A stretch of DNA of 32,000 bases from Ruminococcus albus 7 = DSM 20455 (GCF_000179635.2 NC_014824.1:210001-242000); one strand, 5' to 3'. Positions 1 through 27,374 are shown, counted from the stretch's first letter. A program made the numbers and translations. Notes: a model not told the origin generated them from the sequence alone.

Positions 1-1118
1 TCAGCAGCTGACATATCATCAGAGATAAAATAACCTGCTGTGTCCCACATACCGTAACTGTCAAATTCATCAGTTCTTTTAAGATTTTCATCGATAAGCG
101 CCATAAGATCAACGACTGTCTTATTCTCTGTTGTGGACATAACCGAGTTTGATGTTGTGGTCGTTACCTGTTCATTCGGAGCAAGGGAGTTGATAAAACC
201 ATTAAGCTGACCTGAGATCTGTCCGCCAAACATTGCTCCTGTACTCAATCCTCCTGCCTTACCAATAGCTGCAGCTCCACCTATGGCACCACCTACAACA
301 CCGGCAATTGATAATACAGCACCCGTTATCATAGCAGCCTTCTGTTTTCCGTTCATTTCAGCAAAAGATCTGGAATGTGAAGATGAATCAGTTGTACTGT
401 CAGTATACTGAACTCTTGCCAACGGTGATAGCTTGGTATACAGATCCTGATAACTTTTTCTCAGCATCTGAACCGTCTGCGGAGACTGATTTTGTGCGAT
501 TATAATACCTGTGTATTGTCTGCCATACATTGCAAGAGCCAGTTTTTCCAAGCCCTGAACAAACTGTTCATTTGCCTGTTCCGTATTTTTACAATTTCCA
601 ACAACACTTACCGATGCAATATTGTTCTGATCTAATATTTTTCTTGACAGTTTTCCAATGCTCGTCCTGTCTTCGCTAACTATTTTAACTCCGGGGAAAT
701 TTCCGATAAGTGTATTTTTCAGTGTATCACCAAGCGTCACCATTGAACGCTTTTCAGGATCATCATCTGATGTATTGCTCCTTACCCCGAGATAAAAATT
801 TGTTTCATTACCATCAGAATCAATTATTATGAAAACCGATGCGTTATATGTAGATAATGTATTAAAGACCGTAGTAAATTTATTAGTAACAGACTCGCCC
901 TTACGATAAACCATCTCTGTGATCCTATAAATACGAATATTATTTATTAGTTCATTTTCAAGAGAAGGTAGATCTCCAGCCGGAGCGATCTCCATTTCAT
1001 TAAGTCGTGCCAGATATTTTTTTCTTATACCCTCATCTATTATCTCAAGACGATTATCTATCGTCATTTCTTCGGTCGATGTCATCACATCAGAGTTATA
1101 GGTAGCTATTTCGTCCAT
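1..1118 (-). CDS. hypothetical protein, C-terminus cut by the window edge (>=372 aa), with a glycine-rich hydrophobic segment
   Basis: This gene is not in the ORF track because it runs off the window. My hand translation from the ATG (complement of 1116-1118) gives MDEIATYNSDVMTSTEEMTIDNRLEII... and stays open to position 1. An AAGGGGG Shine-Dalgarno overlaps the end of the upstream gene, with a 6-nt gap. The protein contains AAMITGAVLSIAGVVGGAIGGAAAIGKAGGLSTGAMFGGQ. Confidence 0.7.
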   Translation of the reverse strand, partial: MDEIATYNSDVMTSTEEMTIDNRLEIIDEGIRKKYLARLNEMEIAPAGDLPSLENELINNIRIYRITEMVYRKGESVTNKFTTVFNTLSTYNASVFIIIDSDGNETNFYLGVRSNTSDDDPEKRSMVTLGDTLKNTLIGNFPGVKIVSEDRTSIGKLSRKILDQNNIASVSVVGNCKNTEQANEQFVQGLEKLALAMYGRQYTGIIIAQNQSPQTVQMLRKSYQDLYTKLSPLARVQYTDSTTDSSSHSRSFAEMNGKQKAAMITGAVLSIAGVVGGAIGGAAAIGKAGGLSTGAMFGGQISGQLNGFINSLAPNEQVTTTTSNSVMSTTENKTVVDLMALIDENLKRTDEFDSYGMWDTAGYFISDDMSAA

Positions 1119-1124
1119 CTTTGT

Positions 1125-2756
1125 TTACCCCCTTTCGATCAGATGAAGTTTATCATTTATCTGAGAAAGCCAATCCATATCATTCTGCAAAAGCTGTTCA
1201 TCTTGCGAAAGCTGTTTTGAGACGATCTGCTTTTCTTCAGTCTTTTGCTTTATTATCTGATGTATACGATTATGATAAACATTTGCAAGAACAGCATAAT
1301 ACTTTGTAAGAGTTTCTGTCCAGTTATCGACAACTCTCTGACAAATAGGACCATATTCTTCCACTGCCAGTGTTCTCCACGCTTCATATGTATATGTTAC
1401 TTCCATTACCTTATCATTATTAGCATCAGCATTGTTTTTCAACCTATCGAAAAGTGATGCCTTGCGAACTATATATTGTTCTGTTTTGATATCCATAAAC
1501 TTTTCTGTAAGTGATGGAGTAATATACTCCTTTGCTTCGTAATTGAAATCCACAGTTGGTTCAAAATCCGGGTCCATTTTTGTATCAGAAAACCATTTTC
1601 CGAATAGTTGATCGATCTCTGCGCTTTTTGCCACAGAAGCACTATCTATTTCCGCTACAAATTCAGAATAAAATTTATCAAGCATCGTATTAAATTCTGT
1701 AGCCATTGCAATTGCTTCATCCATATTAGTAGTCTTTGTCTTTTTCTTTCTCCACTCGGAAATTTTGAAGAAAAATGATTTCATTGAAGATACATATTCC
1801 GTAGGTATGATCAGATTATCACGCTGATTGAAAAGATCATCAGCGTTTTTTAGAGTATTTATATCGTTTTCAAGTGAATCGATCTTCCTATGTATACCTG
1901 AATTTACTATCTTACTCTTTTCATTCTCCTCATCTACATCCGCCTGTAACTTACTGATAGTACCTTTTAAAATCCCAAGAACTTTTGTAATGTATTCAGT
2001 AAGCGGATATACTTCAAAATAATCGCTTATGACCGCATCATTAACATCATTTATGATATTTGGGGTATGTATCCCAAGATCAGAGATTATCCTTTCGATC
2101 TGAGGTCTGTTTAATTCAGCACTAATGCAGAAAAAGAGTTGTCTGCTGCTTATATCATCACGGCATATTATTGATCTTAGGTCTCTTTTGTTGCGATTTA
2201 GATCGTGAGAATCTATAAACATTACTATTGGTGTATTCGTAAGATCTGTGGTTGTCAGTTCATTAACATTATCTATATTTTCAATATCTATTTTCTCGTC
2301 ACAAAGTGAAATAGAGGATATTTTGTTTCCATTTATCGTTATAAATGAATATGGACTATCGAGTACCTCTTTATTATCATCTTTAAAAGCCTTATAATCA
2401 AATCTACGATTGGGATGCGCATCCAACCATGAAAAAACATCATAAATACGTTTGTTTTTTATAACTGGTTCTTCTAGCTCGTTTTTATAAAAGAATGCGA
2501 CTTCGTTATCTGTTACCCCTGCTTTTCTAAATGAAGATTTTATTAGTTCGTAATCCGACTCTGTACCTGAAAAATAAAAATCAAATCCATAACCGTTCAT
2601 CTCATCACGAAATACCTGAGGGAGTAATTCGACCCATTCCTGAAGTTTTTTATCACGATATTTTTCTATAATACTATTTATTTTAGGTGGCTGATCATTG
2701 AATTTCACTACTGTTTCCATTAAGTATGGATTATAGCTTAATTCTGTTTTTACCAT
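1125..2756 (-). CDS. hypothetical 543-aa protein with a long helical, coiled-coil-like C-terminal half; no motif recognised
   Basis: ORF-track ORF. It has an AAAGGAG RBS 8 nt upstream of the ATG. It is the first gene after the riboswitch leader and is tightly coupled to the downstream gene. Confidence 0.85.
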   Translation of the reverse strand: MVKTELSYNPYLMETVVKFNDQPPKINSIIEKYRDKKLQEWVELLPQVFRDEMNGYGFDFYFSGTESDYELIKSSFRKAGVTDNEVAFFYKNELEEPVIKNKRIYDVFSWLDAHPNRRFDYKAFKDDNKEVLDSPYSFITINGNKISSISLCDEKIDIENIDNVNELTTTDLTNTPIVMFIDSHDLNRNKRDLRSIICRDDISSRQLFFCISAELNRPQIERIISDLGIHTPNIINDVNDAVISDYFEVYPLTEYITKVLGILKGTISKLQADVDEENEKSKIVNSGIHRKIDSLENDINTLKNADDLFNQRDNLIIPTEYVSSMKSFFFKISEWRKKKTKTTNMDEAIAMATEFNTMLDKFYSEFVAEIDSASVAKSAEIDQLFGKWFSDTKMDPDFEPTVDFNYEAKEYITPSLTEKFMDIKTEQYIVRKASLFDRLKNNADANNDKVMEVTYTYEAWRTLAVEEYGPICQRVVDNWTETLTKYYAVLANVYHNRIHQIIKQKTEEKQIVSKQLSQDEQLLQNDMDWLSQINDKLHLIERG

Positions 2757-2774
2757 AGTTGATCACTCCTTTAA

Positions 2775-2808
2775 TAAAAATAAAAGGCAACGCCAAAAGC
2801 ATTGCCTT
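2775..2808 (-). terminator. intrinsic terminator forming the riboswitch expression platform
   Basis: The minus-strand RNA reads AAGGCAAUGC-UUUUG-GCGUUGCCUU, a 10-bp stem with one G-U pair. It is followed by UUAUUUUUAUU and lies just before the RBS of the 543-aa gene. Confidence 0.75.
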
Positions 2809-2829
2809 AATCAGCTATAAACCAAAAAT

Positions 2830-2912
2830 CTATGCAACCGGCTGTCATACTCTTCGAGCTTAGACCCTTAGCTTTGCGTCACTGCCTTTCAGCAATTTTG
2901 CCTTTGTGATAT
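2830..2912 (-). promoter_or_regulatory. c-di-GMP-I (GEMM-I) riboswitch aptamer
   Basis: The minus-strand RNA reads CACAAAGGCAAAAUUGCUGAAAGGCAGUGACGCAAAGCUAAGGGUCUAAGCUCGAAGAGUAUGACAGCCGGUUGC. It shows the GGCAAA junction, a hairpin capped by a GAAA tetraloop, the GACGCAAAGC junction and a tetraloop-receptor-like UCUAAG...UAUGA. It sits between a consensus promoter and a terminator. Confidence 0.75.
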
Positions 2913-2923
2913 AATATATTTTT

Positions 2924-2952
2924 ATTATATACCATGTACTTGTAATTGTCAA
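2924..2952 (-). promoter_or_regulatory. sigma-A-type promoter of the riboswitch operon
   Basis: The minus strand reads TTGACA-17 nt-TATAAT, with -35 at 2947-2952 and -10 at 2924-2929. Confidence 0.75.
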
Positions 2953-3057
2953 TGAATCTGTACGTATCCTGCTTATTTAAAGATATATTTGGTATTACAC
3001 ACAAATTATCCATTTATAATATTGCACTTTGATGAAAGGCCATTTTACATTCTTGTT

Positions 3058-4035
3058 TTAGTAATTGGGCTTATATAGACGATTGTCTAGTCCAAACGGC
3101 TTCTTTTCTGTGATTTCTCCCGGATCTAACTTCTCATAATGCTCTTCACACATATACATCTTCGCATCGATGTTGTCGATGTAGTGCAAAACAAATGCTT
3201 CTGGAATAGCCGGACAGGATACTGTCCCCCACTCCTGCGTACCGTGGTGCGAAAGTATCATGTGGATCAAAAGCTGAACTTTTTCTTTGTTGTAGTTTCC
3301 GTCCGACGCAAAGCCTTTGATAAGCGAAGCTCCCATATATAAGTGACCTAACAGCACTCCGCTTGCCGTAAACTCAGCATCACCGCTGATCGAGGTCTTA
3401 TATTCCCATACTTTGCCTATATCGTGCAGGGCTGTACCACAGAGAAGCAGCTCACGGTCAAGGTTCGTATATACTCCACAGAGTGCATCGGCAGCCTTGA
3501 CCATACGATAAGAGTGGTACAGCAGACCACCCCTGAGATTGTGATGCATAGATACAGCGGCCGAGGAAGTCATAAAACTATCTTTATACTTTGTCAGTAT
3601 CTTCAACGTAAGATCGGACAACGGCGTATATTTGCCATCATAGTCGTTTGAAGAGCTTTCGATCAGACTGCATATTTCGGTATACATCAGGTCTAAGTCC
3701 ACGGGTGGGAGCTTAGTGAAGTCATTGACCGTAAGTGTGCTGTCTGCTGTCGGTCTGATCTGCACTATTTTGAAGCTCTTTGATCCCTGATACTCAGAAA
3801 CAGATATCTCTGCATCAGCTATCGTGTCCTGCCTGATACCGAGAGACGCAAGACTCTCTTCCGAGGTATCGAACATCATAGCCGTGACTTCCGAAAAGCC
3901 GTCTTTCAGCGATACTCTCACAAATTTATTGCCGTTTCGTGCGGTATTTTCCTCGATTGCAGACACCAATACAGGACGGTTGATCGTGCTGCCGATCTGA
4001 GCATCGGAGAATTTTATATACTGTTCCTTATCCAT
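3058..4035 (-). CDS. yhaM: YhaM-like 3'-5' exoribonuclease (N-terminal OB fold plus HD domain)
   Basis: The 325-aa ORF carries HD-domain motifs MHHNLRGGLLYHS, ALHDIGKV and ILSHHG after an OB-like N-terminal domain. Its size and layout match the YhaM/Cbf1 family. Confidence 0.85.
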   Translation of the reverse strand: MDKEQYIKFSDAQIGSTINRPVLVSAIEENTARNGNKFVRVSLKDGFSEVTAMMFDTSEESLASLGIRQDTIADAEISVSEYQGSKSFKIVQIRPTADSTLTVNDFTKLPPVDLDLMYTEICSLIESSSNDYDGKYTPLSDLTLKILTKYKDSFMTSSAAVSMHHNLRGGLLYHSYRMVKAADALCGVYTNLDRELLLCGTALHDIGKVWEYKTSISGDAEFTASGVLLGHLYMGASLIKGFASDGNYNKEKVQLLIHMILSHHGTQEWGTVSCPAIPEAFVLHYIDNIDAKMYMCEEHYEKLDPGEITEKKPFGLDNRLYKPNY

Positions 4036-4054
4036 AGAAGTTCCTTTCTTAGTA

Positions 4055-4489
4055 TTAGAATGTCACACCTGAAAAAGCGATCAGGTTATTGATGTACTTG
4101 ACAAAACTCCTCAAATTTGGAGGAAAATCGTTGCAGCCGTAATGTTCAAGTACGCTGCCGTTATCAAGAGTGACCTTTACTGACCATTGTGTTCCGTCAT
4201 CAATATCACCATTGATATATTCCTTATTCCAATCATCTATACGGTACTTTAAGAATACATCGCTGATGAATTCATTCCATTCGCCTATCCTTATCTCTTT
4301 TGTTATGTCATCAACCTTGCCCTCACGAAGTAGAGAAGGACTAACCGTCAGTACGGCATGATCGTTCTCTTTTTTGATAGTCACTTCAACGTAACCGCCA
4401 AGGAAACTGCCACATGAGCAGTGAAACGAAATAGCGGATAGAATGTGATTATTATCGGACATAAGTCCGGCATTATACTTTTCTTCCAT
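4055..4489 (-). CDS. hypothetical 144-aa protein, co-transcribed with the yhaM-like gene
   Basis: ORF-track ORF. A promoter lies directly upstream and there is a 19-nt gap to the downstream gene. The RBS (GGTGA) is weak. Confidence 0.65.
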   Translation of the reverse strand: MEEKYNAGLMSDNNHILSAISFHCSCGSFLGGYVEVTIKKENDHAVLTVSPSLLREGKVDDITKEIRIGEWNEFISDVFLKYRIDDWNKEYINGDIDDGTQWSVKVTLDNGSVLEHYGCNDFPPNLRSFVKYINNLIAFSGVTF

Positions 4490-4530
4490 TCGTTATCACC
4501 ACGCATAAATTCTATAAATACTCACTTTAT

Positions 4531-4559
4531 ATGATATCACAAATAGCCAATTTTGTCAA
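4531..4559 (-). promoter_or_regulatory. promoter of the 144-aa/yhaM-like operon
   Basis: The minus strand reads TTGACA-17 nt-TATCAT, with -35 at 4554-4559 and -10 at 4531-4536. Confidence 0.6.
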
Positions 4560-4712
4560 CAATTTTTGACACGATTTCTAGCATAATAAACAATCGATTT
4601 AATTCCATTTTTCACAAGAATTCACGATCAACTCAAAGCTAACCACTCTGATTTATTTTCAATCTGCAAAAGTAGATTGATAATTGAAAAAACATCTGAT
4701 AATGACATAGAG

Positions 4713-5679: not shown

Positions 5680-7230
5680 TCAGTTTGCATCACGCGGCCT
5701 ACTGTACCAGCAGACAACTACATCACTGCCGTATACCGCATCTAGGAGTGTGGGATCAAATCCGGATTCTTCGCAGTAAGTCGGATATTCCTCGATGTCT
5801 ATCATCTTTGAACGCAGTTGACCACCGTCCGGCGCATACAGTTTATAATGGGCAAAAAGGTTTTCACGATCAACCTCCAGATACACACAGCTCTGACCGA
5901 ATACGCCTGCATAGCTGTGATCGTCCGGCAGTGCAAGATTGCCGGTCAGCGCGATGCCGTTCTCATTCACAAAGATGCGCAAATACGCTTCACCGTGTGC
6001 TTTGTCGGTGCGACAGATGCCGCCGGGATACTGATACGAAACCGGTTCATATTCCTCCGTATCCAGATTCTGAGGAAGAAGCCAGACAGTCTTCGGACCG
6101 TAGACCTTCGCTAAAAAAACATCTAGTTTTTCAATGATCTGCTCCGTTGTCAGCCTGTCCGGATTCTGATACAAATATGCAAACTGTTCTGATTCAAACA
6201 ACGTCCGCAATGACAGACTGATCAGTGGGCCGGGGGGACAAATCCTCTTGGTGAAAAAGAGCGTAGTGCAGCCGGTGCCGGTCAGTGCGGCTTCGCGAAA
6301 TGTGTCTTCATTTGTTTCTGCGGATTCCAGAAGCCCCGACAGTGCGGTGCGCGGCAGTGTACCCCATTGCGCTTCGGCAAAGATATTTGGTTGGAGAATC
6401 GCTTTTTCTATATCCTGCTTCGCGACGGAGATGTGGATGAGGGGCTCACCGACACAGGCGGCAAGCTGCTTAGGATAGAGCATGTTGCTGAAGAGCAGGA
6501 GACTATTGTCGGTCTCCAAGATGCGGATATAATTCCCGGTTTCTTTTTCGGTATGCTCCCAAGCAGATGACATTTCTAGCACTATTCTTTTCGCAAGTGC
6601 TGTGGCATCCGGCTTTTCGGTCATGCTAAGGATATTCCCGGAATAGAGCTCGATGCGTTCGACCTCAGGCACCTGCGCTTTTTTAAAATACAGCACAGCG
6701 CATCCTGCTTCAATGTTCTCTGTCATCAAGGTGATATCCAGATTCAAACAGGTTCCGAGAGCAGCAAGTCCGTCCTCTGCAAAGACATCGTCACCTTCGC
6801 AGATCTCTTTGAGTTGCGCCGCGTTCACACAATCCGGGAACTGTGCGGCAAACTGCCGATAATCGCTGTGTGTTCTGCCGCCGTAGGGCTCGCCGATCGC
6901 TATGCGGCAGGACTTCTTCCGGTTCGCTACTTGAAGCGATAGTTCCGCAAAATCGCTGTCAACAAGCTCTGCTGTGATAACCGGTTCCTGAAAAGCACCG
7001 ACTGCAATTGCTGCGCAGCGTTTAAGCGCGGTATGATTCTCTTTCTCCGGAGAGACTGCAAACCACTGTCCGCTTGCTGAAAAACGAAGACGTAGAGCAG
7101 TATATGCGTCGGATGCCTCTGCTTCCACAAAACCCTGCGCGGTCATGTATCTGCGAAGAATATCAGCTAGCTTCTCCGAAGAAAGCTGCTGCGGATTTTG
7201 AACAAAGATGCAGGATGCAGAAAGTCCCAT
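5680..7230 (-). CDS. hypothetical 516-aa protein encoded by a compositionally foreign, GC-richer gene
   Basis: ORF-track ORF with an AAAAGGAG RBS and a TACTATAAT -10 upstream. The gene body is visibly GC-rich, and the spurious ORFs in other frames are typical of high GC. Confidence 0.85.
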   Translation of the reverse strand: MGLSASCIFVQNPQQLSSEKLADILRRYMTAQGFVEAEASDAYTALRLRFSASGQWFAVSPEKENHTALKRCAAIAVGAFQEPVITAELVDSDFAELSLQVANRKKSCRIAIGEPYGGRTHSDYRQFAAQFPDCVNAAQLKEICEGDDVFAEDGLAALGTCLNLDITLMTENIEAGCAVLYFKKAQVPEVERIELYSGNILSMTEKPDATALAKRIVLEMSSAWEHTEKETGNYIRILETDNSLLLFSNMLYPKQLAACVGEPLIHISVAKQDIEKAILQPNIFAEAQWGTLPRTALSGLLESAETNEDTFREAALTGTGCTTLFFTKRICPPGPLISLSLRTLFESEQFAYLYQNPDRLTTEQIIEKLDVFLAKVYGPKTVWLLPQNLDTEEYEPVSYQYPGGICRTDKAHGEAYLRIFVNENGIALTGNLALPDDHSYAGVFGQSCVYLEVDRENLFAHYKLYAPDGGQLRSKMIDIEEYPTYCEESGFDPTLLDAVYGSDVVVCWYSRPRDAN

Positions 7231-7410
7231 GAGTGAATACTCCTTTTAGTAGTTTATTTGTCGAATTATAGTATGCCTTAACAGAAAAAAACTCAGAGAG
7301 CTGTTTCAAATAGCAAATAACATATCTACATTAGTAGATATTAGGGCTCTCTAAGTTATCTTCATTTATTTTATCATAACAATGATCAAAAGTCAATAGA
7401 CCATTATCCC

Positions 7411-7461
7411 CTTTTCAATCAGTAAGACTTCCCTTTCAAACTGTAAGATTCCATTGATTTT
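7411..7461 (+). repeat. 51-bp direct repeat, left copy, containing two 21-bp-phased half-sites
   Basis: The sequence is CTTTTCAATCAGTAAGACTTCCCTTTCAAACTGTAAGATTCCATTGATTTT. It matches 9536-9586 at 49 of 51 positions. Confidence 0.9.
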
Positions 7462-7588
7462 GCATACGACTGAGTGATCGCAGTTATTATCGGAAGCTTA
7501 TATTATGAAACGAAAACATATAATAGAAAACTCACACAAAAACAATAACAGTGGCTGTATACAAATGCTATACTGATGCAGTTTTTAG

Positions 7589-9244
7589 CTATATATCCGG
7601 TTTTGCGATTTCTTCTTTTGCTTTATCAACTATATCATCCGGAAAACCTATAGCGCTTAAAAGTTTTATAGCATTGCTTGAATCGTTGATACCGTTGTGT
7701 AATGTGTAATCAAACATGATGTCATCCGAGTCAATGACTTCCGAGAAATAGTAATTGGCAAAGATCTTATCAAATGCTTTTGCAAGTTCCAGATCATGGG
7801 TCGCCACCAAGAGCATACATCGTTTATCTGTAAAATAATTCAGTATCGCTTTTGAAGCTGCTATTCGTTCCCTGGTGTTAGTACCTTTAAGTATCTCGTC
7901 TATTGCAAGAAACAGCAGTCTGTCTTCTTGACAGAGCTCAATCATTCTCTTCAGATACTTTATTTCACGGATATAATAGCTTTCGCCTGATAAAATATCA
8001 TCTCTCACAGCCATTGATGTGATCACACCGCATTTGGGTACAGAAGCGCTTTCGGAAGTGCAGGTATGTATGGTCTGACCAAGAATAAGGTTTATTGCTG
8101 TGGATTTGATAAATGTGGATTTACCGGAAGCATTAGAGCCTGTGATTATTATATTGCGATCATATTCAATATCATTCGGTATCGCATTTGATATAGCAGG
8201 ATGAACTAATCCGACGAACGAAAAACTGTCATTATCTGCTGTTTTAGGAATACAGTATGTCGCCGCACTTTTTCTGTACGAAGCTATTGATACACTACAG
8301 TCTATCTCACCGATAAACTTGTATATACGCATACATTCCGACTTTTTTTCAATAAGTTCAGATATGATCTTATCGTACATGATAAAGTCGATCATGAGTG
8401 GACCGAGTAAATATGACATCATCATACTGACCTCATCTTTATTATCGGTAGCATTCTTCTGTTCGAGAAAAGTCGATCTTTTTGCGGTGTTTTTCAATGT
8501 GTTCAGATCTTCTGATATCTCATTGCTGAATTCCGGAACAAGCTCAGCCAGCGAAAATGATGTATTCAGCATTTTCCCTAAATTGAATACAGACTTTACT
8601 TTTATGTCCATTTTTTCCTTTTTTATCGTGTGGATGATCATATTTATAAGATAAACAGCTATGCACATTCCGATAAAAACTGGTTTTCTTATTATAATGG
8701 CAGCTGCTATCGATATCATAAGCAGATATGACAGCGCATAATAAAACTTACTATTTTTCAGTTTGTGCTTGGATATGTTTTCTATCAGTATCGGCATATC
8801 GTAGTTCACATACGATTTGCCTAGAAAATATAGCTTTTCCCTGACTTCGAATCTTTTGTCTTCGTTAGTACCAAAGAAAGATATTTTTTCTTCAAGCTGC
8901 TTCAGGTTGCTTTCTGTTTTTGAAAGATCATGCAGCTTTGAGTACAGACATTGCTCCCCGATATAACTGTCCGTGTGGTTAACAAGGGCAAAAATATTAT
9001 CCATGCTAAGATCTTCCCAAGTGATATCATCAACAATCTCATGTTCAGCTATACTTTTCTTGTCCATCAGATAAAGAGTTTCAATGTTGCCAAGTCTGTA
9101 GAACTGCTCCTCAGTATCATCACGAGGCACGCCAAAGGAAGATCTTATGTAGTCAAGGATACGTTTTTGCCGTTTTTTATCTTGAACGATAGTTATCACA
9201 ATAACAGTAACTATCATCAGCGATATCAATATCAAATATTCCAT
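7589..9244 (-). CDS. MutS-related ATPase (MutS domain V only) with transmembrane segments
   Basis: The 551-aa ORF has Walker A GSNASGKST, Walker B LLFLAIDEILKGTN and ATHDLELA. It has an N-terminal TM helix (LILISLMIVTVIVITIV) and central TM helices. I saw no mismatch-binding or Smr domain. Confidence 0.8.
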   Translation of the reverse strand: MEYLILISLMIVTVIVITIVQDKKRQKRILDYIRSSFGVPRDDTEEQFYRLGNIETLYLMDKKSIAEHEIVDDITWEDLSMDNIFALVNHTDSYIGEQCLYSKLHDLSKTESNLKQLEEKISFFGTNEDKRFEVREKLYFLGKSYVNYDMPILIENISKHKLKNSKFYYALSYLLMISIAAAIIIRKPVFIGMCIAVYLINMIIHTIKKEKMDIKVKSVFNLGKMLNTSFSLAELVPEFSNEISEDLNTLKNTAKRSTFLEQKNATDNKDEVSMMMSYLLGPLMIDFIMYDKIISELIEKKSECMRIYKFIGEIDCSVSIASYRKSAATYCIPKTADNDSFSFVGLVHPAISNAIPNDIEYDRNIIITGSNASGKSTFIKSTAINLILGQTIHTCTSESASVPKCGVITSMAVRDDILSGESYYIREIKYLKRMIELCQEDRLLFLAIDEILKGTNTRERIAASKAILNYFTDKRCMLLVATHDLELAKAFDKIFANYYFSEVIDSDDIMFDYTLHNGINDSSNAIKLLSAIGFPDDIVDKAKEEIAKPDI

Positions 9245-11626: not shown

Positions 11627-11689
11627 TACCAATAAGAGCAGGCACTTGGTATGTTTGAAAATATTAAAACTATATGGAGAGCAGAGACA

Positions 11690-12388
11690 ATGAATGTATT
11701 ATTCAAGGAAATTCGGCAAGGAAATATCGAAAATATAAGAGAACGAATTGAAAAAAATCCTGCCGTTGTAAATGAGGTATTCACTGGAAAAAAACCATTG
11801 AAAGATATAGGACAATCACCATTGCAGGTTGCTTTGAAATGCGCTGAATTTGATATTATAGACTTGTTGCTCAATAATGGTGCTGATCCGGATTTCATAG
11901 AAAACCCCTCACAAGTTCCACCGGGTAGTATGTGTTGTCCTGTAATATCAGATGCAATTAAATATGCAATGGATACCTTGCTGTATACTGGTACAAAACA
12001 CATTGAACAATCCTTACGATATGTAGGGATCATTGAACGATTGCTTGTGTTAGGAGCAGATCCGAACAAAAAAAGAATTGATAAGAATCCAATCAACAAC
12101 TGGCAGCCACTTGGAGTACTGGCTGCAGGAGGAAATTATATTTTGAAGCGGACAAGGAGCGATGATCCGGAGGCATATTGCATAGCAAATAAAAACATCA
12201 TTACTATCCTTGATTTGTTGATAAAGTATGGAGCAGATGTTGAGGATTGGCTTGATAACGGCGTATGGGGAGACGAATCCAATCGAAAAGCTTATCTCGA
12301 TGATTTTGAAATTAAAGACGAAGTTGATTTTAATCGAGAGATTCGCACCATTTTTCAAGAATATTTTAACAGACAAACTAATACTTGA
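11690..12388 (+). CDS. ankyrin-repeat protein
   Basis: Repeats such as SPLQVALKCAEFDIIDLLLNNGADPD, LLVLGADPNKK and LIKYGADVEDW are present. I prefer the ATG at 11690 (GGAGAG RBS) to the track start at 11651, which has no RBS. Confidence 0.8.
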   Translation: MNVLFKEIRQGNIENIRERIEKNPAVVNEVFTGKKPLKDIGQSPLQVALKCAEFDIIDLLLNNGADPDFIENPSQVPPGSMCCPVISDAIKYAMDTLLYTGTKHIEQSLRYVGIIERLLVLGADPNKKRIDKNPINNWQPLGVLAAGGNYILKRTRSDDPEAYCIANKNIITILDLLIKYGADVEDWLDNGVWGDESNRKAYLDDFEIKDEVDFNREIRTIFQEYFNRQTNT

Positions 12389-12731: not shown

Positions 12732-12775
12732 TTGTGGGTAAGATTAACTTTGATAATGTAATTCGAGGTAGCTCT

Positions 12776-13375
12776 ATGAACGATAAAGAATTATTCACTC
12801 GCATATCCGAAGTGGAAAACAGATTGAACATAACAATTCCTAAAGTCTATAAGGATTTTTTACTTAAACACGATGGTATGGAGTTTGATGATGGAATACT
12901 ATACGGTATTGAAGAAATAGAGGACAGATATCTAACTTTTGAATTTAATAAATATGCTCCTGAATTGATTCCTATTGGCAATGACAATGGAGACTATGAG
13001 CTTGTAATGAAATCAGGAAACCAGATTAAAAGGTTTGGTATTGTCGAGCAAGGCTCGGTAGGTTCGCTTGAACCGGAACATTTTCATAATTTTACCCAGT
13101 GGTATAATAGCGGTCACTCTTTTGAGTTTGAAACTGGAACAAGCAATATCGACGGGTCAAAAAGAGTGAAGGTTGTATTAAAAAAGTGTCCGACCGATAA
13201 ATCAAGAACGATAATGAAGATCAGAAAAGCATTGCGTCTTGAATTGCCAATTACCGAATTACTTCGTGCTGCTAATAATGCTCCGGTTGTTCTTACCGAG
13301 TCACTTACCTTTGCAGTGGCAAAAAAGCTTATTGCAGAAAACTCACTTGATGAATGGCTGGATATAAAATCATGA
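12776..13375 (+). CDS. SMI1/KNR4 (SUKH) family protein with a C-terminal L7/L12-CTD-like domain
   Basis: A SUKH-like N-terminal region is present (IPKVYKDFLLKHDGMEF...IPIGNDNGDYELVM). The tail VKVVLKKCPTDKSRTIMKIRKALRLELPITELLRAANNAPVVL follows the L7/L12 C-terminal domain pattern. I use the ATG at 12776 (GAGGT RBS) because the track GTG at 12734 lies at the predicted TSS. Confidence 0.7.
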   Translation: MNDKELFTRISEVENRLNITIPKVYKDFLLKHDGMEFDDGILYGIEEIEDRYLTFEFNKYAPELIPIGNDNGDYELVMKSGNQIKRFGIVEQGSVGSLEPEHFHNFTQWYNSGHSFEFETGTSNIDGSKRVKVVLKKCPTDKSRTIMKIRKALRLELPITELLRAANNAPVVLTESLTFAVAKKLIAENSLDEWLDIKS

Positions 13376-14865: not shown

Positions 14866-16152
14866 TTATTTAGCCGTTTTGATTCCTTTCTGTATCTCAT
14901 TGGCACGTTCTTCACTTATACCGCATTTTTCTGCATAGCTGAGCCATTTACCTACAACAACTTCAGTCTCGGATAATACCTTACGGCAGAACCCTTGTGA
15001 CAGCCCCATAGACTTTCCACTTGCTACAAGATCTTCTGCTGTTATTCCCGAGGTTTTTCCGTTTACTGACATCTGATGTTTTGATATCCATTTGTTATCG
15101 GGATTATAAGCGAATGTTAGATCGTATGCCGGAGAAAGCGCCCATTTGCCTTTACGATCCATCAAAAATGAGAAGTTCTTGACGTGGTCATCACAGTTTC
15201 CACCAAACACTGCAAACACTATACGTCTGAGGATCTGCTCTATCCCGCTTTTGCCAATACCAAGTCTCTTTGCAAGATCGGCATATAATTCATAACTGCA
15301 AATATTCGGTGTGTTATAATCAAAATGTCCCAACGCTGCAAGAGTCTGCATATGTATTTTGTCACCATTTGCACGATCAAAACGTTTTGTCATGAAATGA
15401 TGTAATCCGTCCTTTTTATATATACGACACTCGTTCATGTCGATCCCCAGATCTTTTGCCATAAGATAATAAGCGTATTCGATAAGTGAATATTGTTTTT
15501 TATCGGCTAAATTGTGGTCGCCGTTGCCAGATACTCCATCAAACTTGATAAGCCAGTAGTCAAAACCTTTCCCCGTTTCTATCTGTCCTGATCTGACTTC
15601 GCCGGTATCTTCATTCCACGCAATTATAGCTTTTGCTCTTGCACCGCCTGCCGAAGAACCTATCTCCATCAGCTGCATTATGCTTGCATCCTTGTCTGAC
15701 AAAACAGCACTCTCTTTACCTGACAGTATCTCAGATGCAAGTTGAGTCATCTCTGTTACATCGACGTTGCTGTTTAGAATTTCGGGACCTGCTGCAGGGA
15801 CATACTCAAGTGCGCCCATTCCGCGTTTTCCGGTGTAACACAGTCTCTCTATTGCTGTAAACGATTCGGGAGAACGACCCTGACCTGCAAGCCATTTGTT
15901 TATAACCGCATTACCAAATTTATCAGGCAAGGAGTCGGCAAATAATCCCGGGATTCCATGAAATGCCTCTATACGACTGAGTTCGGGGAAGGAGTATATT
16001 CGATCAGATAAAGGCATTCTGAACGGAGACAGTTCTATCCCACTGTTAAGGAACTTTCTATCGTATTCAAAACTCGCAGCAACATCATTTTCGCCTTGAT
16101 GAATGTATCCTATACGAGTTCCCCAGAGAAATACTTCTGCGGTAGTTATCAT
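14866..16152 (-). CDS. hipA: HipA-family serine/threonine kinase toxin (type II TA)
   Basis: The 428-aa ORF has an N-terminal coupling domain and a C-terminal DDHVKNFSFLM...LSPAYDL kinase core. It overlaps the upstream HTH gene by 4 nt. Confidence 0.9.
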   Translation of the reverse strand: MITTAEVFLWGTRIGYIHQGENDVAASFEYDRKFLNSGIELSPFRMPLSDRIYSFPELSRIEAFHGIPGLFADSLPDKFGNAVINKWLAGQGRSPESFTAIERLCYTGKRGMGALEYVPAAGPEILNSNVDVTEMTQLASEILSGKESAVLSDKDASIMQLMEIGSSAGGARAKAIIAWNEDTGEVRSGQIETGKGFDYWLIKFDGVSGNGDHNLADKKQYSLIEYAYYLMAKDLGIDMNECRIYKKDGLHHFMTKRFDRANGDKIHMQTLAALGHFDYNTPNICSYELYADLAKRLGIGKSGIEQILRRIVFAVFGGNCDDHVKNFSFLMDRKGKWALSPAYDLTFAYNPDNKWISKHQMSVNGKTSGITAEDLVASGKSMGLSQGFCRKVLSETEVVVGKWLSYAEKCGISEERANEIQKGIKTAK

Positions 16153-16487
16153 TCTTCATCGCCCCATTTCCAGTTATTATCGGTCTTTTTTCGTTTGCTT
16201 GCACGCTGTTTCGGAGCTTTGTTTTCTGCATAGTGTGAAGGTCGCTCCAGCGGATCCGGTATCAGTATATCTAGTTTTTCTTCAAGATCAAGTGCTTTAA
16301 AAAGTTTGATCAGTTTTAGAAGTCCTATATCATTACCGCTCTCAAAACGAGCTATTGTTCCAACTGAAACCATTGATTTTTCTGAAAGCTCTGATCTTGT
16401 CATTGGATAATCGATCCTGTACTGCTTGAATCTTTCTGATAATTCCTTAAATATAGCTTTGTCTTGTAATTCTCTGTTTATCTTCAT
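16149..16487 (-). CDS. hipB: XRE-family HTH antitoxin (HipB-like)
   Basis: An HTH is present (MTRSELSEKSMVSVGTIARFESG). It overlaps hipA at ATGA. Confidence 0.85.
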   Translation of the reverse strand: MKINRELQDKAIFKELSERFKQYRIDYPMTRSELSEKSMVSVGTIARFESGNDIGLLKLIKLFKALDLEEKLDILIPDPLERPSHYAENKAPKQRASKRKKTDNNWKWGDEE

Positions 16488-16831: not shown

Positions 16832-18025
16832 TCATTTATCAAGCAACCAATCAAGAACATACTTCTGTCTGATCCCATTATATGATACAGGCGGATCGTT
16901 ATCCATAGTCAGAAGTATCTTTGTATTATGGTCATTAATGTTTTGCAGCGGTGTGAGTTCTCTTTCAAGAGTCTTTTCATCACGAACAGTCCATGATACC
17001 TGATAATACTCGGTGTTTCCATCATAGTCAACAGCCACGAAATCAACTTCCGTATTGCCGTTTTTTCCTATATATACTTCATAACCTCTGCGAATAAGCT
17101 CCAGGTATACCACGTTTTCCAGAATATGCCCGTTATCTGCATTATTGGTACCGAGAAGATAATATCTTAGTCCAACATCAGCAGCATAGTATTTATCCAG
17201 CAGTTTCAGGTATTCCTTCCCCTTGATGTCATATCTTCCGACACGGTACATAAGGAGACTATCGGTAAGACCTTCAAGATAGTTTTCTACAGTATGATTG
17301 GATATTTTTCTTCCCGCACTTGTCATTGAATCGGCTATCTTCTTTGAAGAACATGGGCTTCCGATATTATCGAACAGGTATTTTATAACGCTTTTCAGCA
17401 TCAGCGGATCCTGTATTTTCTTTCTGGTGACAATATCGTTCAGAACAATGGTATTATATAAACCGTCAAGATATGTTCTTATGTTCCTCCTGTCATGGAG
17501 TTCGGTTGTATAAGGAAAGGAACTGTTGTACACGTAATTCCTGTAAAGTTCCTCTTTGCTTATTCCCTCAAACACACTTGCGTACTCCTTAAATGACAGA
17601 GGGAGCATTTTAAGTTCAACATACCTGCCTGATAACAGCGTTGCAAGCTCACCCGACATAAAATAGGCATTTGAACCTGTTATATAGACGTCTGTGTTCT
17701 TTTTTACGAACAGGCTGTCTACAGCTCTTTGATAATCAGCAACACACTGAATCTCATCCAGAAAGATATAATTCGTTTTATCAGGAAGCATACGGGATGT
17801 TATATAGCTGTACATTTTATGCCAGTCGTGGAGTTCTTCATTTTCGGCTTCTTCAAAATTGATAGATATTATCTGGTCATCACTAACGCCTTGTTTTCCG
17901 AGCTGTTCTCGGAAAAGCTCAAACAGCGTGGATTTTCCACATCTTCTGATGCCGGTAATAACTTTTATTATTTGTTTATCCTTCCAATCGTTCAGAAATC
18001 TGAGATATTCAGGACGATCTATCAT
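16832..18025 (-). CDS. AAA-family ATPase (AAA_14/DUF4143-type)
   Basis: Walker A reads GIRRCGKSTL and the architecture is typical. I prefer the ATG at 18025 (AAGGAG RBS) to the track start at 18142. Confidence 0.85.
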   Translation of the reverse strand: MIDRPEYLRFLNDWKDKQIIKVITGIRRCGKSTLFELFREQLGKQGVSDDQIISINFEEAENEELHDWHKMYSYITSRMLPDKTNYIFLDEIQCVADYQRAVDSLFVKKNTDVYITGSNAYFMSGELATLLSGRYVELKMLPLSFKEYASVFEGISKEELYRNYVYNSSFPYTTELHDRRNIRTYLDGLYNTIVLNDIVTRKKIQDPLMLKSVIKYLFDNIGSPCSSKKIADSMTSAGRKISNHTVENYLEGLTDSLLMYRVGRYDIKGKEYLKLLDKYYAADVGLRYYLLGTNNADNGHILENVVYLELIRRGYEVYIGKNGNTEVDFVAVDYDGNTEYYQVSWTVRDEKTLERELTPLQNINDHNTKILLTMDNDPPVSYNGIRQKYVLDWLLDK

Positions 18026-18215
18026 AGTAATCAACTCCTTCTGCCATGTATTATATGGATTTCTGGAATTATTATACCATGTCCGTTTTAAAAAGTCAAT
18101 AGTTGGAAATGTATTTCCAACTATACTAGAAAATGCGAACAATTGGAAATCTATTTATCCTCTTTAAGCAAGAAGAGGGGCTGCAACAGCCCCTTTGGTA
18201 TTTAGGGTAAGTTGA

Positions 18216-24002: not shown

Positions 24003-27000
24003 ATGTATTTTTTTATGCAGAAAAACAGAAAGAAGCTCATCGCAAGAATGTCCGCAGCTACAATGGCTACACTCATGGCGTTCAATTCAATGGTGCCGAT
24101 AATCAGCTCGGCAGCTGAAGGTACAGTGTGGTTTAAGAATGGCAATGTTACTCTTGAACAGGCTGATGGTATTTATTACAATTACACATCTAAGTTGCCT
24201 TTTACCGCATATGACTCCCCCAGCGAACATGCAACATACGGCGGGGCTGTTAAGTTCCGTAATTCAAACGGTACTACAACAGAAGCCATAGGACTTACCG
24301 AGGGCGGCGGAATGCATCAGATGGTAATGTATGAGATGAAGGGTAACGGAGCAAATTCCAATCTCGGTATCTGTCTCAGACCTACAGCACACTCCTTTGC
24401 TGCCGGATTTTTTGATTCAGACGGAAAGATCGTCGAATACACATCTACTAATGGCTATACAGGATATTGGGACAAGGTTAAAGGAACACAGACCGGAAGG
24501 GCGATAGCCACAGCAATGTACTATGGCTACGGAGGAAGAGTTCAGGGTAAGAGTAAGAGTGTTGCAGACTGCTATATTGCAACTCAGTTTATCGTTTGGG
24601 AACTTGTATGCGGATACAGAGATCCTAAAACCATGGAACTTGTTACCAAGGATGCTAACGGCAATAACATTTCGACAAGTTCAAGCCTCCTTGATTACTA
24701 CAAGCCTACAGCCGGCGGCGCTGTTATAAGCAAGAACAACAGCTGCTCGGGGATCGTTGATGAATATAATAAAATCGTCAAATCCATGAAAAATTGGGCA
24801 GATACACTTTATAATAGGCCAGCAAGTCTCTACAGCACATCAGATAAGGTTGTTCTTGCGTATGATTTTGCTGATAACAAGTATACCGGAAGCGTAGATA
24901 TAAAGGGAGCAAAGGGAAACTGGGCAAATGCAACCGGCACAGCTCTCAAGTCTCAGTGGGGAGCTGATAATATATCTACAAACGGAACAGTATATACCAT
25001 AAGTTCTGAAAAAAGACCGACAGCTACCAAAACTGTTATTTCGCCTATAAGGACTGATGAGTATGATGCTGCAGACACTTGGACAATCTATAATCACAGT
25101 TTTGATCCAAGAAAAGCAAGAAACAGCTCCGATGAAGACTGCCAGGATCTTGCATTCAATGCAATGAGAATTGACCCTGCCGAGGGAGAAATCAATTATC
25201 AGGTAGCAAGCTACGGCGATATCGAGCTGACTAAGCTGTGGGAAATTAACGGAAATGTTATCGATGATGAAAAGGCAGCCGAATATATGACTTCCATTTC
25301 CTTCAACCTGTCCACAGTAGGCGAAGATGGTAAGACATACTATGTTAAGGCAAGCTGGGATAGCCTTTCTTCAAGCGACTATACCTTTACAGGAACGACT
25401 ACAAATGCAAGTGAAGCAACAAACTTCAGATTCAACTCCGGTGCTGAAGCAGATACAGTAATGAAGATCAAAAACATTCCTGCCGATGAAGATGGTATGG
25501 ATTATGTTGTGACTGAAACTGTAAGAGAAAATTCAAAGGCATATAATGATGGTTATGCTGCAGAGGATCCTAAGAACGTTCATGTCAGCGGATACAGCCT
25601 GACAGATAAGCCCGATGTTGCAACAGTAACATTTGCAAATAATAAGGAAAGCATTTACGGTCAGGTTTCTCTTCTGAAACTCGATTCTGAAAACGGTGAA
25701 AGACTTTCCGGTGCAACTTTTGAACTGTGGAATGATACTAACGAAAATGGTCAGCTTGATGAAGCTGATGTTAAGGTTGGAACGCTCAATGATAACAACA
25801 ACGGCGAGTATGTTTCCGACAAGATCGAAGGCGGTAAATATCTCGTAAAAGAAACAAAGGCTCCTTACGGTTATGTTGTATACAGAGCACCTATCGCTTT
25901 TGAAATCACCGAGGACGGTCAGAACCTGACTATCGGTAATACTATAGACGAAAACGGCAACGTTGTATTCAAGGAAAGACCTGCCAAGGGCAACATCGAG
26001 CTCAACAAGGTCGATTCTGATACAAATGAACCTATCTCCGGTGCGGAATTCACTGTATGGAAAGATGAAAACAAGAACGGTACTCTTGATGACGGCGATA
26101 CAGAAGTGGGAACTCTTTATGAAACAACAGAAGAAGTGATCGAAGAGGATACTCCTGACGGAGAAGCCGGAGAGGTAGTTACACGTGGTACCGGAAATTA
26201 CCACATAGAAGACCTCAGACTTGGACAGTATATCGTAAAGGAAACAGCGGCACCTGAGAATTACATCATTGATCCTAATGAATATGTAGCTGTTGTTGAA
26301 GCTGATGGACAGACTGTTTATATCAATAACAGAGAGAATAAAGAAGGATTCTTTGAGGTAGAAAAGAAGGGTAAGATAACTCTTACAAAGTACGATTCCA
26401 GATATCCTGACCATGTTCTTTCAGGAGCAGTATTTGATGTATGGAAGGATACTAACTCTAACGGATTTGTAGATGAAGTCGATGAATATCTTGGCAATCT
26501 TGTCGAAACTGCAGACGGTATCTACGAAATGTCAAATCTGAGACTGGGCGATTATATCGTACATGAAGCAGCGGCTCCCGAGGGCTTCAATGTTGATGAT
26601 GGTTACTACCCTGCAGCTATTAGAGATGACGGCGATATCGCAGTTGTAACAAACAGAGATGCAGACGGTGATTTCGCTTCCGGCTTCTACAATGACATCA
26701 AGCGTGGTGATATAGAGATAACAAAGACAGATATCGTATCATCTGAAGCACTGCCCAACACAGGCTTCAGGATCTACGACAAGGACAAGAACGTTATCTT
26801 TGAAGATTACACCGATGAAAACGGAAAGATCACCTTCAAGGAACTTGAATACGGTGAGTACTACTACCAGGAGTATGATGCTCCCGAGGGCTACATCATC
26901 GATGAATCTCTCTACAGATTTGAGATACGTGAGGATGGTGTCGTAGTAAGAGCTGATATGACAAACAGACCTAAGCCTGCACTTGTTACCATAACTAAAA

Positions 27001-27374
27001 CTGATATTTCTGAATCCACTACCCTGCCTAACACAGGAATAAGGATCTGCAGAGCTGACGGCACTGTTGTATCCGAACAGCGTACAGGTTCAGATGGTTC
27101 TGTGACCTTCGAGATTAATATCGAAGAGCTCGGCTATGGCAAGTACTACTTCGAAGAGTTTGATGCTCCCGAGGGTTATCTTATCAATGACGAAAAGCAC
27201 TGGTTCGAGATCACTGCAGGCGGTCAGGTCATTCACGATAAGCTGAGGGATGAAAAGGTTCCTAAGACAAGCGTTGATGTAAACACTGCTCTTCCTTTGA
27301 CAGCCGGCGCAGGTGCTGTGGCAGGACTTATAGTTCTGACATACGTTGCAATAGGCAAGAAGAAAGATATCTAA
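24003..27374 (+). CDS. cell-wall-anchored adhesin with about six Cna-B/SpaA-type repeat domains
   Basis: Repeats of the form G.IEL.K.D..T...L.GA.F.VW......NG..D........ETKAP.GY are present. There is a signal peptide and a C-terminal LPLTAG-hydrophobic-KKKD sorting-like signal. The start may be the ATG at 24015 rather than 24003. Confidence 0.9.
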   Translation: MYFFMQKNRKKLIARMSAATMATLMAFNSMVPIISSAAEGTVWFKNGNVTLEQADGIYYNYTSKLPFTAYDSPSEHATYGGAVKFRNSNGTTTEAIGLTEGGGMHQMVMYEMKGNGANSNLGICLRPTAHSFAAGFFDSDGKIVEYTSTNGYTGYWDKVKGTQTGRAIATAMYYGYGGRVQGKSKSVADCYIATQFIVWELVCGYRDPKTMELVTKDANGNNISTSSSLLDYYKPTAGGAVISKNNSCSGIVDEYNKIVKSMKNWADTLYNRPASLYSTSDKVVLAYDFADNKYTGSVDIKGAKGNWANATGTALKSQWGADNISTNGTVYTISSEKRPTATKTVISPIRTDEYDAADTWTIYNHSFDPRKARNSSDEDCQDLAFNAMRIDPAEGEINYQVASYGDIELTKLWEINGNVIDDEKAAEYMTSISFNLSTVGEDGKTYYVKASWDSLSSSDYTFTGTTTNASEATNFRFNSGAEADTVMKIKNIPADEDGMDYVVTETVRENSKAYNDGYAAEDPKNVHVSGYSLTDKPDVATVTFANNKESIYGQVSLLKLDSENGERLSGATFELWNDTNENGQLDEADVKVGTLNDNNNGEYVSDKIEGGKYLVKETKAPYGYVVYRAPIAFEITEDGQNLTIGNTIDENGNVVFKERPAKGNIELNKVDSDTNEPISGAEFTVWKDENKNGTLDDGDTEVGTLYETTEEVIEEDTPDGEAGEVVTRGTGNYHIEDLRLGQYIVKETAAPENYIIDPNEYVAVVEADGQTVYINNRENKEGFFEVEKKGKITLTKYDSRYPDHVLSGAVFDVWKDTNSNGFVDEVDEYLGNLVETADGIYEMSNLRLGDYIVHEAAAPEGFNVDDGYYPAAIRDDGDIAVVTNRDADGDFASGFYNDIKRGDIEITKTDIVSSEALPNTGFRIYDKDKNVIFEDYTDENGKITFKELEYGEYYYQEYDAPEGYIIDESLYRFEIREDGVVVRADMTNRPKPALVTITKTDISESTTLPNTGIRICRADGTVVSEQRTGSDGSVTFEINIEELGYGKYYFEEFDAPEGYLINDEKHWFEITAGGQVIHDKLRDEKVPKTSVDVNTALPLTAGAGAVAGLIVLTYVAIGKKKDI

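Follow-up and report, generated by a model that had tools for sequence, protein, structure and literature searches.

The closest described relatives of the RNA analyzed here are two class I riboswitches for cyclic dimeric guanosine monophosphate (c-di-GMP): Cd1, in the flgB leader of Clostridioides difficile, and Vc2, in the tfoY leader of Vibrio cholerae. Cd1 is an OFF switch in which the aptamer and the terminator coexist and compete with an antiterminator; the antiterminator is transient, control is kinetic and c-di-GMP represses (PMC9262584). In the pilM ON switch, the aptamer and the terminator overlap and are mutually exclusive (PMC9262584). In the structures of Vc2, the two guanines of c-di-GMP are recognized separately, one by G20 and the other through a pair with C92, and a GAAA tetraloop docks into its receptor (PMC6140456). 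Here, we describe an RNA of the same family, c-di-GMP-I (GEMM-I), in a 32,000-nucleotide stretch of Ruminococcus albus 7 DNA (hereafter, the window). It lies in the leader of an operon of three genes, A, B and C, which form a conserved cassette around a predicted HerA-clade ATPase. The sequence of the leader and its predicted folding suggest that it probably carries a functional class I c-di-GMP riboswitch acting as a transcriptional OFF switch, with c-di-GMP promoting termination ahead of A-B-C.

The element is like Cd1 in being a c-di-GMP-I RNA in a 5′ leader of one of the Clostridia, with a separate terminator that coexists with the aptamer. The targets differ, since Cd1 precedes a flagellar operon and the window RNA an uncharacterised HerA cassette. 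Vc2, the prototype aptamer, is further removed: its host is Gram-negative, it has no simple intrinsic-terminator platform, and its target is a regulator, not a machine.

The leader of the A-B-C operon contains a c-di-GMP-I aptamer

All coordinates refer to the window, and the riboswitch elements run from high to low numbers on the minus strand. A plus-strand reading of the leader coordinates was ruled out, as every element lies on the minus strand. The leader is made up as follows.

2952..2924, minus strand: sigma-70-type promoter, with −35 TTGACA at 2952..2947, a 17-nucleotide spacer and −10 TATAAT at 2929..2924
2912..2830, minus strand: c-di-GMP-I (GEMM-I) aptamer, 83 nucleotides, Rfam RF01051
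2902..2897, minus strand: GGCAAA junction
2896..2881, minus strand: P2 hairpin AUUGCU-GAAA-GGCAGU, with the GAAA tetraloop at 2890..2887
2880..2871, minus strand: the sequence GACGCAAAGC
2864..2859 and 2849..2845, minus strand: tetraloop-receptor halves UCUAAG and UAUGA in P3, an 11-nucleotide receptor in which U-A stands in place of the closing C-G
2829..2809, minus strand: 21-nucleotide linker between aptamer and terminator
2808..2784, minus strand: intrinsic terminator (attenuator) stem-loop AAGGCAAUGCU-UUU-GGCGUUGCCUU, with 11 pairs and a 3-nucleotide loop
2783..2774, minus strand: U-tract 3′ of the terminator stem, UUAUUUUUAU
2771..2766, minus strand: ribosome-binding site AAGGAG, 9 nucleotides 5′ of the ATG of gene A (2756)

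The aptamer matched RF01051 with a score of 70.7 bits in an Rfam cmscan, twice the gathering score of 35, and an E-value of 3.9e-12. The match covered model positions 1–87 of 87 without truncation and was the only Rfam match in the whole 32-kb window. With a covariance model built in the present analysis, the score was 94.7 bits. The E-value excludes a chance origin, and by every RF01051 test that can be made computationally the window RNA is a genuine member of the c-di-GMP-I family. As an RNA it is ordinary, and standard annotation pipelines would detect it.

The promoter agrees with the consensus at 12 of 12 positions and ranked first among the 22 promoter-like sites in 1..4600; transcription would start near 2918–2916, about 6–8 nucleotides past TATAAT. 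Promoter, aptamer, terminator, ribosome-binding site and ATG follow one another in the sense orientation relative to the downstream genes.

A c-di-GMP-I riboswitch had been proposed for this leader from the sequence alone, with no strand given, and most of that original prediction was borne out. The TTGACA-17-TATAAT promoter is there, as are all of the GEMM-I hallmarks that had been listed (GGCAAA, the GAAA hairpin, GACGCAAAGC and the receptor), found between 2902 and 2845. The receptor can be read from the sequence as the 11-nucleotide motif with the C-G to U-A change in its closing pair, and the covariance-model search that had been named as a check gave the RF01051 match described above. 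The ribosome-binding site does follow the terminator. The terminator itself exists, but with 11 pairs rather than 10, and the linker separates it from the aptamer that it was said to follow immediately. Five of its pairs are G-C and two are G-U, and the hairpin has a predicted energy of −15.1 kcal/mol.

Some metagenome annotations place a 44-residue gene at window positions 3013-2879 on the minus strand (equivalent to 1424-1558 of locus L003), covering the promoter together with the first third of the aptamer. This is almost certainly a spurious call.

Predicted ligand specificity

In the Rfam alignment, the Vc2-numbered contacts correspond to G20 = 2902, A47 = 2875 and C92 = 2834. G2902 is unpaired and lies just 5′ of the G21-C22/G45-C46 pairs, with G21-C22 at 2901-2900; A2875 comes after GACGC, and C2834 after the 3′ strand of P3. 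We take A47 to be a ligand-contact position in the Vc2 structures. The window aptamer thus has the recognition positions of Vc2, together with the GAAA tetraloop and receptor through which P2 and P3 dock in that RNA (PMC6140456).

The combination of G at 2902 and C at 2834 is a signature of c-di-GMP and not of cyclic GMP–AMP (cGAMP), and suggests that the window aptamer binds c-di-GMP. Recognition of another cyclic dinucleotide, 3′3′-cGAMP, as in the GEMM-Ib riboswitches, was considered, as GEMM-I and GEMM-Ib share the same fold and are poorly separated by Rfam, and one of the other cassette-linked aptamers described below (L056) has an A at position 20. The cGAMP-sensing relatives of GEMM-I, including the cGAMP-selective members, have A20 (PMC6140456), whereas the window aptamer has G20 and C92. 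We regard cGAMP sensing by the window aptamer as highly improbable.

The expression platform and the predicted direction of the switch

The terminator (2808..2784) has no nucleotide in common with the aptamer (2912..2830). When the aptamer pairs from Rfam were enforced on the 162-nucleotide leader, the minimum free energy (MFE) structure retained the full terminator, at −37.0 kcal/mol. Coexistence of the terminator with the folded aptamer is the layout of Cd1, and on that basis an OFF switch is predicted.

Co-transcriptional states were approximated by folding transcripts of growing length. In transcripts of at least 102 nucleotides, the MFE structure contained a 14-bp helix, here called anti-P3, between the 5′ strand of P3 (2874..2861) and 2832..2819. 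The 3′ strand of this helix consists of the last three bases of the aptamer and part of the linker, so that its formation is predicted to dismantle the ligand-free aptamer. The anti-P3 duplex had a predicted energy of −16.4 kcal/mol, compared to −10.9 ± 2.4 kcal/mol for shuffled sequences (z −2.3).

In transcripts of 125–132 nucleotides, from which the terminator 3′ arm has not yet emerged, the MFE structure (−32.7 kcal/mol) was a candidate antiterminator, one strand of which comes from the 5′ half of the aptamer:

2906..2891, minus strand: predicted antiterminator strand, comprising CAAAGGCA (2906..2899) and UUGCU (2895..2891)

These two segments would pair with GGCAAUGCUUUUG at 2806..2794, that is, with the 5′ arm and loop of the terminator. 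The duplex had a predicted energy of −12.8 kcal/mol, compared to −8.5 ± 2.0 kcal/mol for shuffles (z −2.2, p ≈ 0.03). The leader of the Oscillibacter locus (L014) follows the same logic with a different sequence, UUGGCAA with UUGCUGA (z −2.1 against shuffles). In Cd1, the antiterminator strand is the 3′ (P1) strand of the aptamer, whereas in the window the folding predicts that the 5′ half of the aptamer (junction and P2 5′ strand) takes this role, together with anti-P3.

A different pairing had been put forward originally, from a repeat of AAGGCAA in the aptamer junction and the terminator. The repeat is real (leader nucleotides 15–21 and 111–117), and pairing of AAAGGCAA in the aptamer with UUGCCUUU in the terminator 3′ arm is possible, but it would be a weak, isolated long-range helix of −4.9 kcal/mol. 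This pairing was absent from every MFE structure and was dropped in favor of the one with the terminator 5′ arm and loop.

From these predictions, we propose the following model. The 83-nucleotide aptamer would be transcribed first. With c-di-GMP bound, G20, A47 and C92 would hold the ligand in the three-helix junction, and the GAAA tetraloop and its receptor would dock P2 against P3. The 5′ half of the aptamer would then be locked, the 11-bp hairpin and U-tract would form, and RNA polymerase would stop before gene A. At low c-di-GMP, the linker would invade P3 to form anti-P3 and free the 5′ half of the aptamer, whereupon CAAAGGCA...UUGCU could pair with the terminator 5′ arm and loop as a transient antiterminator, allowing readthrough into A, B and C.

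The opposite arrangement, an ON switch in which c-di-GMP binding blocks termination and induces A-B-C, would fit the full-length ligand-free leader, whose MFE structure holds both the terminator and the anti-P3 helix, so that the terminated form could be the default state. The AAGGCAA repeat would also make a pairing possible between the 5′ strand of the aptamer and the 3′ arm of the terminator. Switches induced by c-di-GMP do occur in the Clostridia, but the known C. difficile examples belong to class II (PMC11477304). Against this arrangement, the fold with the aptamer enforced sequesters neither arm of the terminator, which forms fully, and all pairings that could block the terminator use aptamer nucleotides that ligand binding would lock. 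ON switches of the c-di-GMP-I family need an overlap between terminator and aptamer, as in pilM (PMC9262584), and there is none here. An ON switch is, in our judgment, unlikely.

Several observations weigh against the OFF switch as we have drawn it. The statistical support for the antiterminator is modest (p ≈ 0.03), and complementarity between the aptamer and a terminator arm was not above shuffles in two of the other riboswitch loci, L056 (z 0.06) and L063 (z −0.55). The terminated fold is favored over the antiterminator by 5.6 kcal/mol, and the antiterminator can form only if the stable P2 hairpin opens. At equilibrium, the terminator has a probability of 0.98 whether the aptamer is folded or not, so that regulation, if any, would have to be kinetic, as it is in Cd1. 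The leader is identical in all R. albus copies, so the expression platform shows no covariation. Finally, the nearest relatives of the window locus (A proteins 70, 63 and 58% identical) have a plain promoter, a leader of about 50 nucleotides and no riboswitch, which shows that c-di-GMP control is optional for the cassette.

Some of these points would also suit a scenario with an aptamer that binds c-di-GMP and, at 2808..2784, an attenuator that is constitutive or leaky, control being exerted elsewhere (mRNA stability, Rho or translation), or in which the element is a recent, untuned insertion with little effect. The terminator is overwhelmingly favored thermodynamically in both states, and the leader is confined to R. 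albus, its close relatives having the plain promoter and short untranslated region. On the other hand, the succession of promoter, aptamer, terminator and ribosome-binding site is a canonical transcriptional design that recurs, with other sequences, in three further lineages, and more than 20 independent R. albus contigs carry the leader without a single change. In Cd1, too, the antiterminator is transient and the terminator is the more stable of the two (PMC9262584). We consider a passive attenuator or untuned insertion quite improbable, and take the kinetic OFF switch to be the likely mode of action, the antiterminator pairing itself being a prediction of the folding.

Aptamers ahead of the cassette in other lineages

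A survey for the cassette with one genome per species found 56 loci. Aptamers were searched for with the covariance model built here, in about 745 kb of DNA fetched from related loci, and with Rfam, in 31 loci. Three further loci had a c-di-GMP-I aptamer.

L014, Oscillibacter valericigenes, cassette strand: aptamer of 60.6 bits (Rfam), A protein 36% identical to the window A
L056, Lachnospiraceae LC2019, cassette strand: aptamer at 6542-6618, 45.7 bits (Rfam), A protein 31% identical to the window A
L063, Eubacterium metagenome-assembled genome (MAG), cassette strand: aptamer of 63.2 bits (Rfam), A protein 24% identical to the window A

All of the c-di-GMP-I matches in the ≈745 kb were located just upstream of an A-B-C operon and on the same strand, with none elsewhere. 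Rfam found no other riboswitch class, such as c-di-GMP-II, ahead of the cassettes in the 31 loci. The aptamers of L014, L056 and L063 each have their own promoter and terminator, and the terminator and A are separated by a small HTH_17 gene in L014 and L056.

In a tree of the A proteins, the riboswitch loci fell into three clades, with sister loci that lack an aptamer. Some features are shared between leaders: P3 is truncated in both L014 and L056, and L056 and L063 resemble each other in P2 and in the terminator. In view of this sharing, we put the number of independent recruitments of a c-di-GMP-I aptamer to the cassette at a minimum of two, and probably at three, as judged from these sequences.

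In an alignment of the four cassette-linked aptamers, 88.2% of the cells were paired, compared to 15–47% in slid controls, and six pairs had compensatory changes; with four sequences and an alignment fitted to the model, this is supportive but not decisive. Some members of the c-di-GMP-I family lack the tetraloop receptor, among them the aptamers of L014 and L056; in L056 the receptor tip of P3 is missing.

The L056 aptamer reads AGCAAA in place of GGCAAA, placing A at position 20. A natural G20A change is the signature of cGAMP-sensing or bispecific GEMM-Ib riboswitches (PMC6140456). In L063, gene A is split into two open reading frames (ORFs; 7001-7417 and 7546-8640) by a frameshift or an assembly error, and the operon behind the riboswitch is longer; two additional genes without annotation (273 and 187 residues) precede A.

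The proteins encoded by the cassette

The three genes are arranged as follows, with locus L001 supplying the part beyond the window.

2756..1125, minus strand: gene A, ORF of 543 residues
1118..1, minus strand: gene B, the first 372 of 1000 codons, running off the window; complete at L001 11639-14641
L001 14641-16188, outside the window, same operon: gene C, 515 residues, with a glycine zipper at residues 414–456

The A-B junction is 6 nucleotides, and the start of C overlaps the stop of B. The targets had originally been described as falling outside the adhesin, pilus and flagellar genes usual for these riboswitches, and this holds: A and C have no family match, and B has only a HerA/DUF87 ATPase domain.

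The 1000-residue B protein consists of an N-terminal alpha/beta domain, a hydrophobic glycine-zipper segment (residues 260–310) and a HerA-clade ATPase with the Walker A motif GSTGSGKS at residue 518. It matched DUF87 (PF01935) at 45 bits, compared to a Pfam cutoff of 23.2, and the PADLOC HerA model with an E-value of 1.4e-20; NCBIfam gave no match for the part of B inside the window. All of its sequence relatives in the PDB were HerA or DUF87 proteins, including HerA chains from defense complexes of the Sir2-HerA and DUF4297-HerA types (8wiv, 8xau, 9c1m and 8yho). By these sequence matches, B is a HerA-clade ATPase of the FtsK-HerA superfamily. Canonical HerA lacks the 490-residue N-terminal extension with the glycine zipper that is found in B.

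For the AlphaFold2 model of the N-terminal domain of B, the 12 best PDB matches were all TrwK/VirB4 (E 3e-3 to 3e-2), with a probability of 0.93–1.0 over about 255 aligned columns, in a model with an overall predicted local distance difference test score (pLDDT) of only 61.9. TrwK and VirB4, which are ATPases of type IV secretion, also combine such an N-terminal domain with a HerA/FtsK-superfamily ATPase and are membrane associated, but the likeness of the N-terminal domains is weak. They show no sequence-level similarity to B, and the variable genes flanking the cassette include no conserved VirB6, VirB8, coupling protein, relaxase or other type IV secretion set. An assignment of B as a VirB4 was rejected, as sequence profiles gave it no support and only the weak fold resemblance remained.

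The Sir2-HerA and DUF4297-HerA systems resemble the cassette in having a HerA-type ATPase, and the neighborhoods of the cassette, which occurs in many gut bacteria, are defense-island-like. Unlike these systems, the cassette contains no Sir2, DUF4297 or other nuclease or NADase; its ATPase is partnered by a coiled-coil protein of dynamin-like fold and by a protein with a glycine zipper. Membership in either system was rejected, as Pfam, NCBIfam and PADLOC found no such effector in A or C.

No Pfam, NCBIfam or PADLOC family matched A above threshold. Its AlphaFold2 model (pLDDT 86.8) has two alpha/beta domains and a long helical stalk, and its best Foldseek matches were LeoA (E 8.6e-5) and IniA (E 7.9e-4), with a global template modeling (TM) score of only ≈0.2. 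The model suggests that A has a dynamin-like fold, in overall architecture only: it shares alpha/beta head domains and a long helical stalk with LeoA, IniA and BDLP, but has neither their GTPase P-loop nor any sequence similarity to them, and superimposes at the same TM score of ≈0.2. A scan for the motif [AG]xxxxGK[ST] found no Walker A/P-loop, and in the absence of the P-loop (G1), the identification of A as a dynamin-like GTPase was rejected. A is also the fastest-evolving member of the cassette, with 34–71% identity to the window protein in the family.

C is unannotated apart from its glycine zipper, with no Pfam, NCBIfam or PADLOC family above threshold. A classical polymorphic toxin, which would have a variable C-terminal domain and a cognate immunity gene behind it, is unlikely, as the C-terminus of C is conserved.

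Distribution of the cassette and its possible role

The order A-B-C was intact in about 45 of the 56 loci, whereas the flanking genes varied from locus to locus. The hosts included Ruminococcus, Oscillospiraceae, Lachnospiraceae, Bacillus/Neobacillus, Periweissella, Erysipelotrichaceae, Synergistaceae, Coriobacteriales and one Oxalobacter MAG. One Lachnospiraceae MAG (CACYTU010000001.1) carries two divergent A-B-C copies, L024 and L035, about 11 kb apart on the same strand. Identity across the family was 63–73% for B, ≈45–55% for C and 34–45% for A outside its own clade. The unequal rates, with B slow and A fast, fit a conserved motor with a fast-evolving partner.

Only one of 2.9 million viral contigs contained the cassette, and on this ground a phage origin was ruled out. 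PLSDB gave no plasmid match for window positions 1-4600. Exact copies of the cassette proteins are found on the 420,706-bp replicon of R. albus 7 and in assembly GCA_000621285.1.

The two nearest genes on each flank of the cassettes gave strong matches to DpdF, DruE, SngC, BrxH and PsyrT, the first four being frequent neighbors. In 8 loci, C is immediately followed on its own strand by a gene for a SUKH immunity protein, and in 1 by a gene for a YezG-like immunity protein, with gaps of −56 to +19 nucleotides; both are immunity proteins of polymorphic toxins. The immunity-gene loci are named as L015, L019, L021, L024, L025, L027, L030, L045 and L054 for SUKH and L032 (12767-13246) for the YezG-like protein. 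The ORF calls for C are shorter in the loci with an immunity gene (285–386 residues), which suggests that these loci form a distinct four-gene sub-family. No immunity gene follows C at the R. albus locus.

A known defense system was rejected as an identity for the cassette, as no system model matched it (PADLOC had none for A or C). The literature search returned nothing on the A-B-C cassette, nor on c-di-GMP riboswitches in R. albus. As far as the searched libraries and literature show, A-B-C is an undescribed cassette. Guilt by association points to a cellular, mobile, membrane-associated conflict module around the HerA-clade ATPase, related either to defense or to toxins. It could be a membrane-perforating defense system, or a toxin-related machine restrained by the immunity protein. 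Tentatively, A-B-C may represent a new and widespread membrane-acting conflict system of the Bacillota, with a fast-evolving dynamin-like sensor or scaffold, a highly conserved HerA/VirB4-like ATPase with its glycine-zipper segment, a glycine-zipper effector and, in one branch, a SUKH/YezG immunity partner, independently wired to c-di-GMP by class I riboswitches in several Clostridia; this full picture is possible, although we would not call it probable.

Genomic surroundings

The riboswitch promoter is immediately preceded by two genes of the same strand, which accompany the cassette in every R. albus contig. The nearer one (3058-4035, minus strand) encodes a divergent paralogue of the YhaM-like 3′-5′ exoribonucleases with OB and HD domains (218 bits compared to an equivalog cutoff of 460), and the other (4055-4489, minus strand) a 144-residue protein without a family. 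On the other side, C is followed by a gap of 382 nucleotides and then, at L001 16571-17834, by a serine recombinase fragment (253 residues, Resolvase and part of the Recombinase domain) and a 165-residue Mrr_cat nuclease with a hydrophobic N-terminus. This region may be the edge of a mobile element.

Proteins encoded elsewhere in the window include HipA/HipB, SUKH, NYN, CoiA-like, MutS_V and AAA_14. The HipA-like kinase toxin (428 residues) and an overlapping upstream HTH_3 gene (112 residues) at 14866-16487 on the minus strand look like a HipBA toxin–antitoxin pair, after which comes an AAA_14/DUF4143 ATPase at 16832-18142. A stand-alone SUKH-1 (SMI1/KNR4) immunity-type protein is encoded at 12734-13375 on the plus strand, about 10 kb from the cassette and not adjoining C; the gene next to it (11651-12388) encodes an ankyrin-repeat protein.

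The 1123-residue surface protein encoded at 24003-27374 (plus strand) combines five SpaA/prealbumin-fold repeats with a thioester domain (TED). A c-di-GMP-II riboswitch controls a thioester-domain protein of C. difficile, CD3246 (PMC11477304). Upstream of the 24003-27374 gene, Rfam showed no riboswitch. Further along the plus strand, 30164-31249 encodes a DHH/DHHA1 phosphoesterase, a family that includes nanoRNases and phosphodiesterases for cyclic dinucleotides or pGpG.

Significance

The value of the riboswitch is as a pointer to a conserved and entirely unannotated three-gene cassette that cells would have reason to tie to c-di-GMP. Vc2 ties low c-di-GMP to TfoY and hence to type VI secretion, which would be a precedent for the control of a conflict system. 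Class I c-di-GMP riboswitches in C. difficile precede hypothetical genes and type I antitoxin RNAs (PMC11477304), so that a non-canonical target is not unprecedented. The cassette would widen the known c-di-GMP regulon of the Clostridia beyond motility, pili, adhesins and proteases, and manipulation of c-di-GMP would offer an experimental handle on a system whose neighbors and partners point to phage defense or toxin immunity. If the conflict-system interpretation is true, A-B-C would be armed in planktonic or dispersing cells, where c-di-GMP is low, and silenced in attached cells, where it is high, and this would be the first link at the level of a riboswitch between c-di-GMP and a machine for immunity or antagonism.

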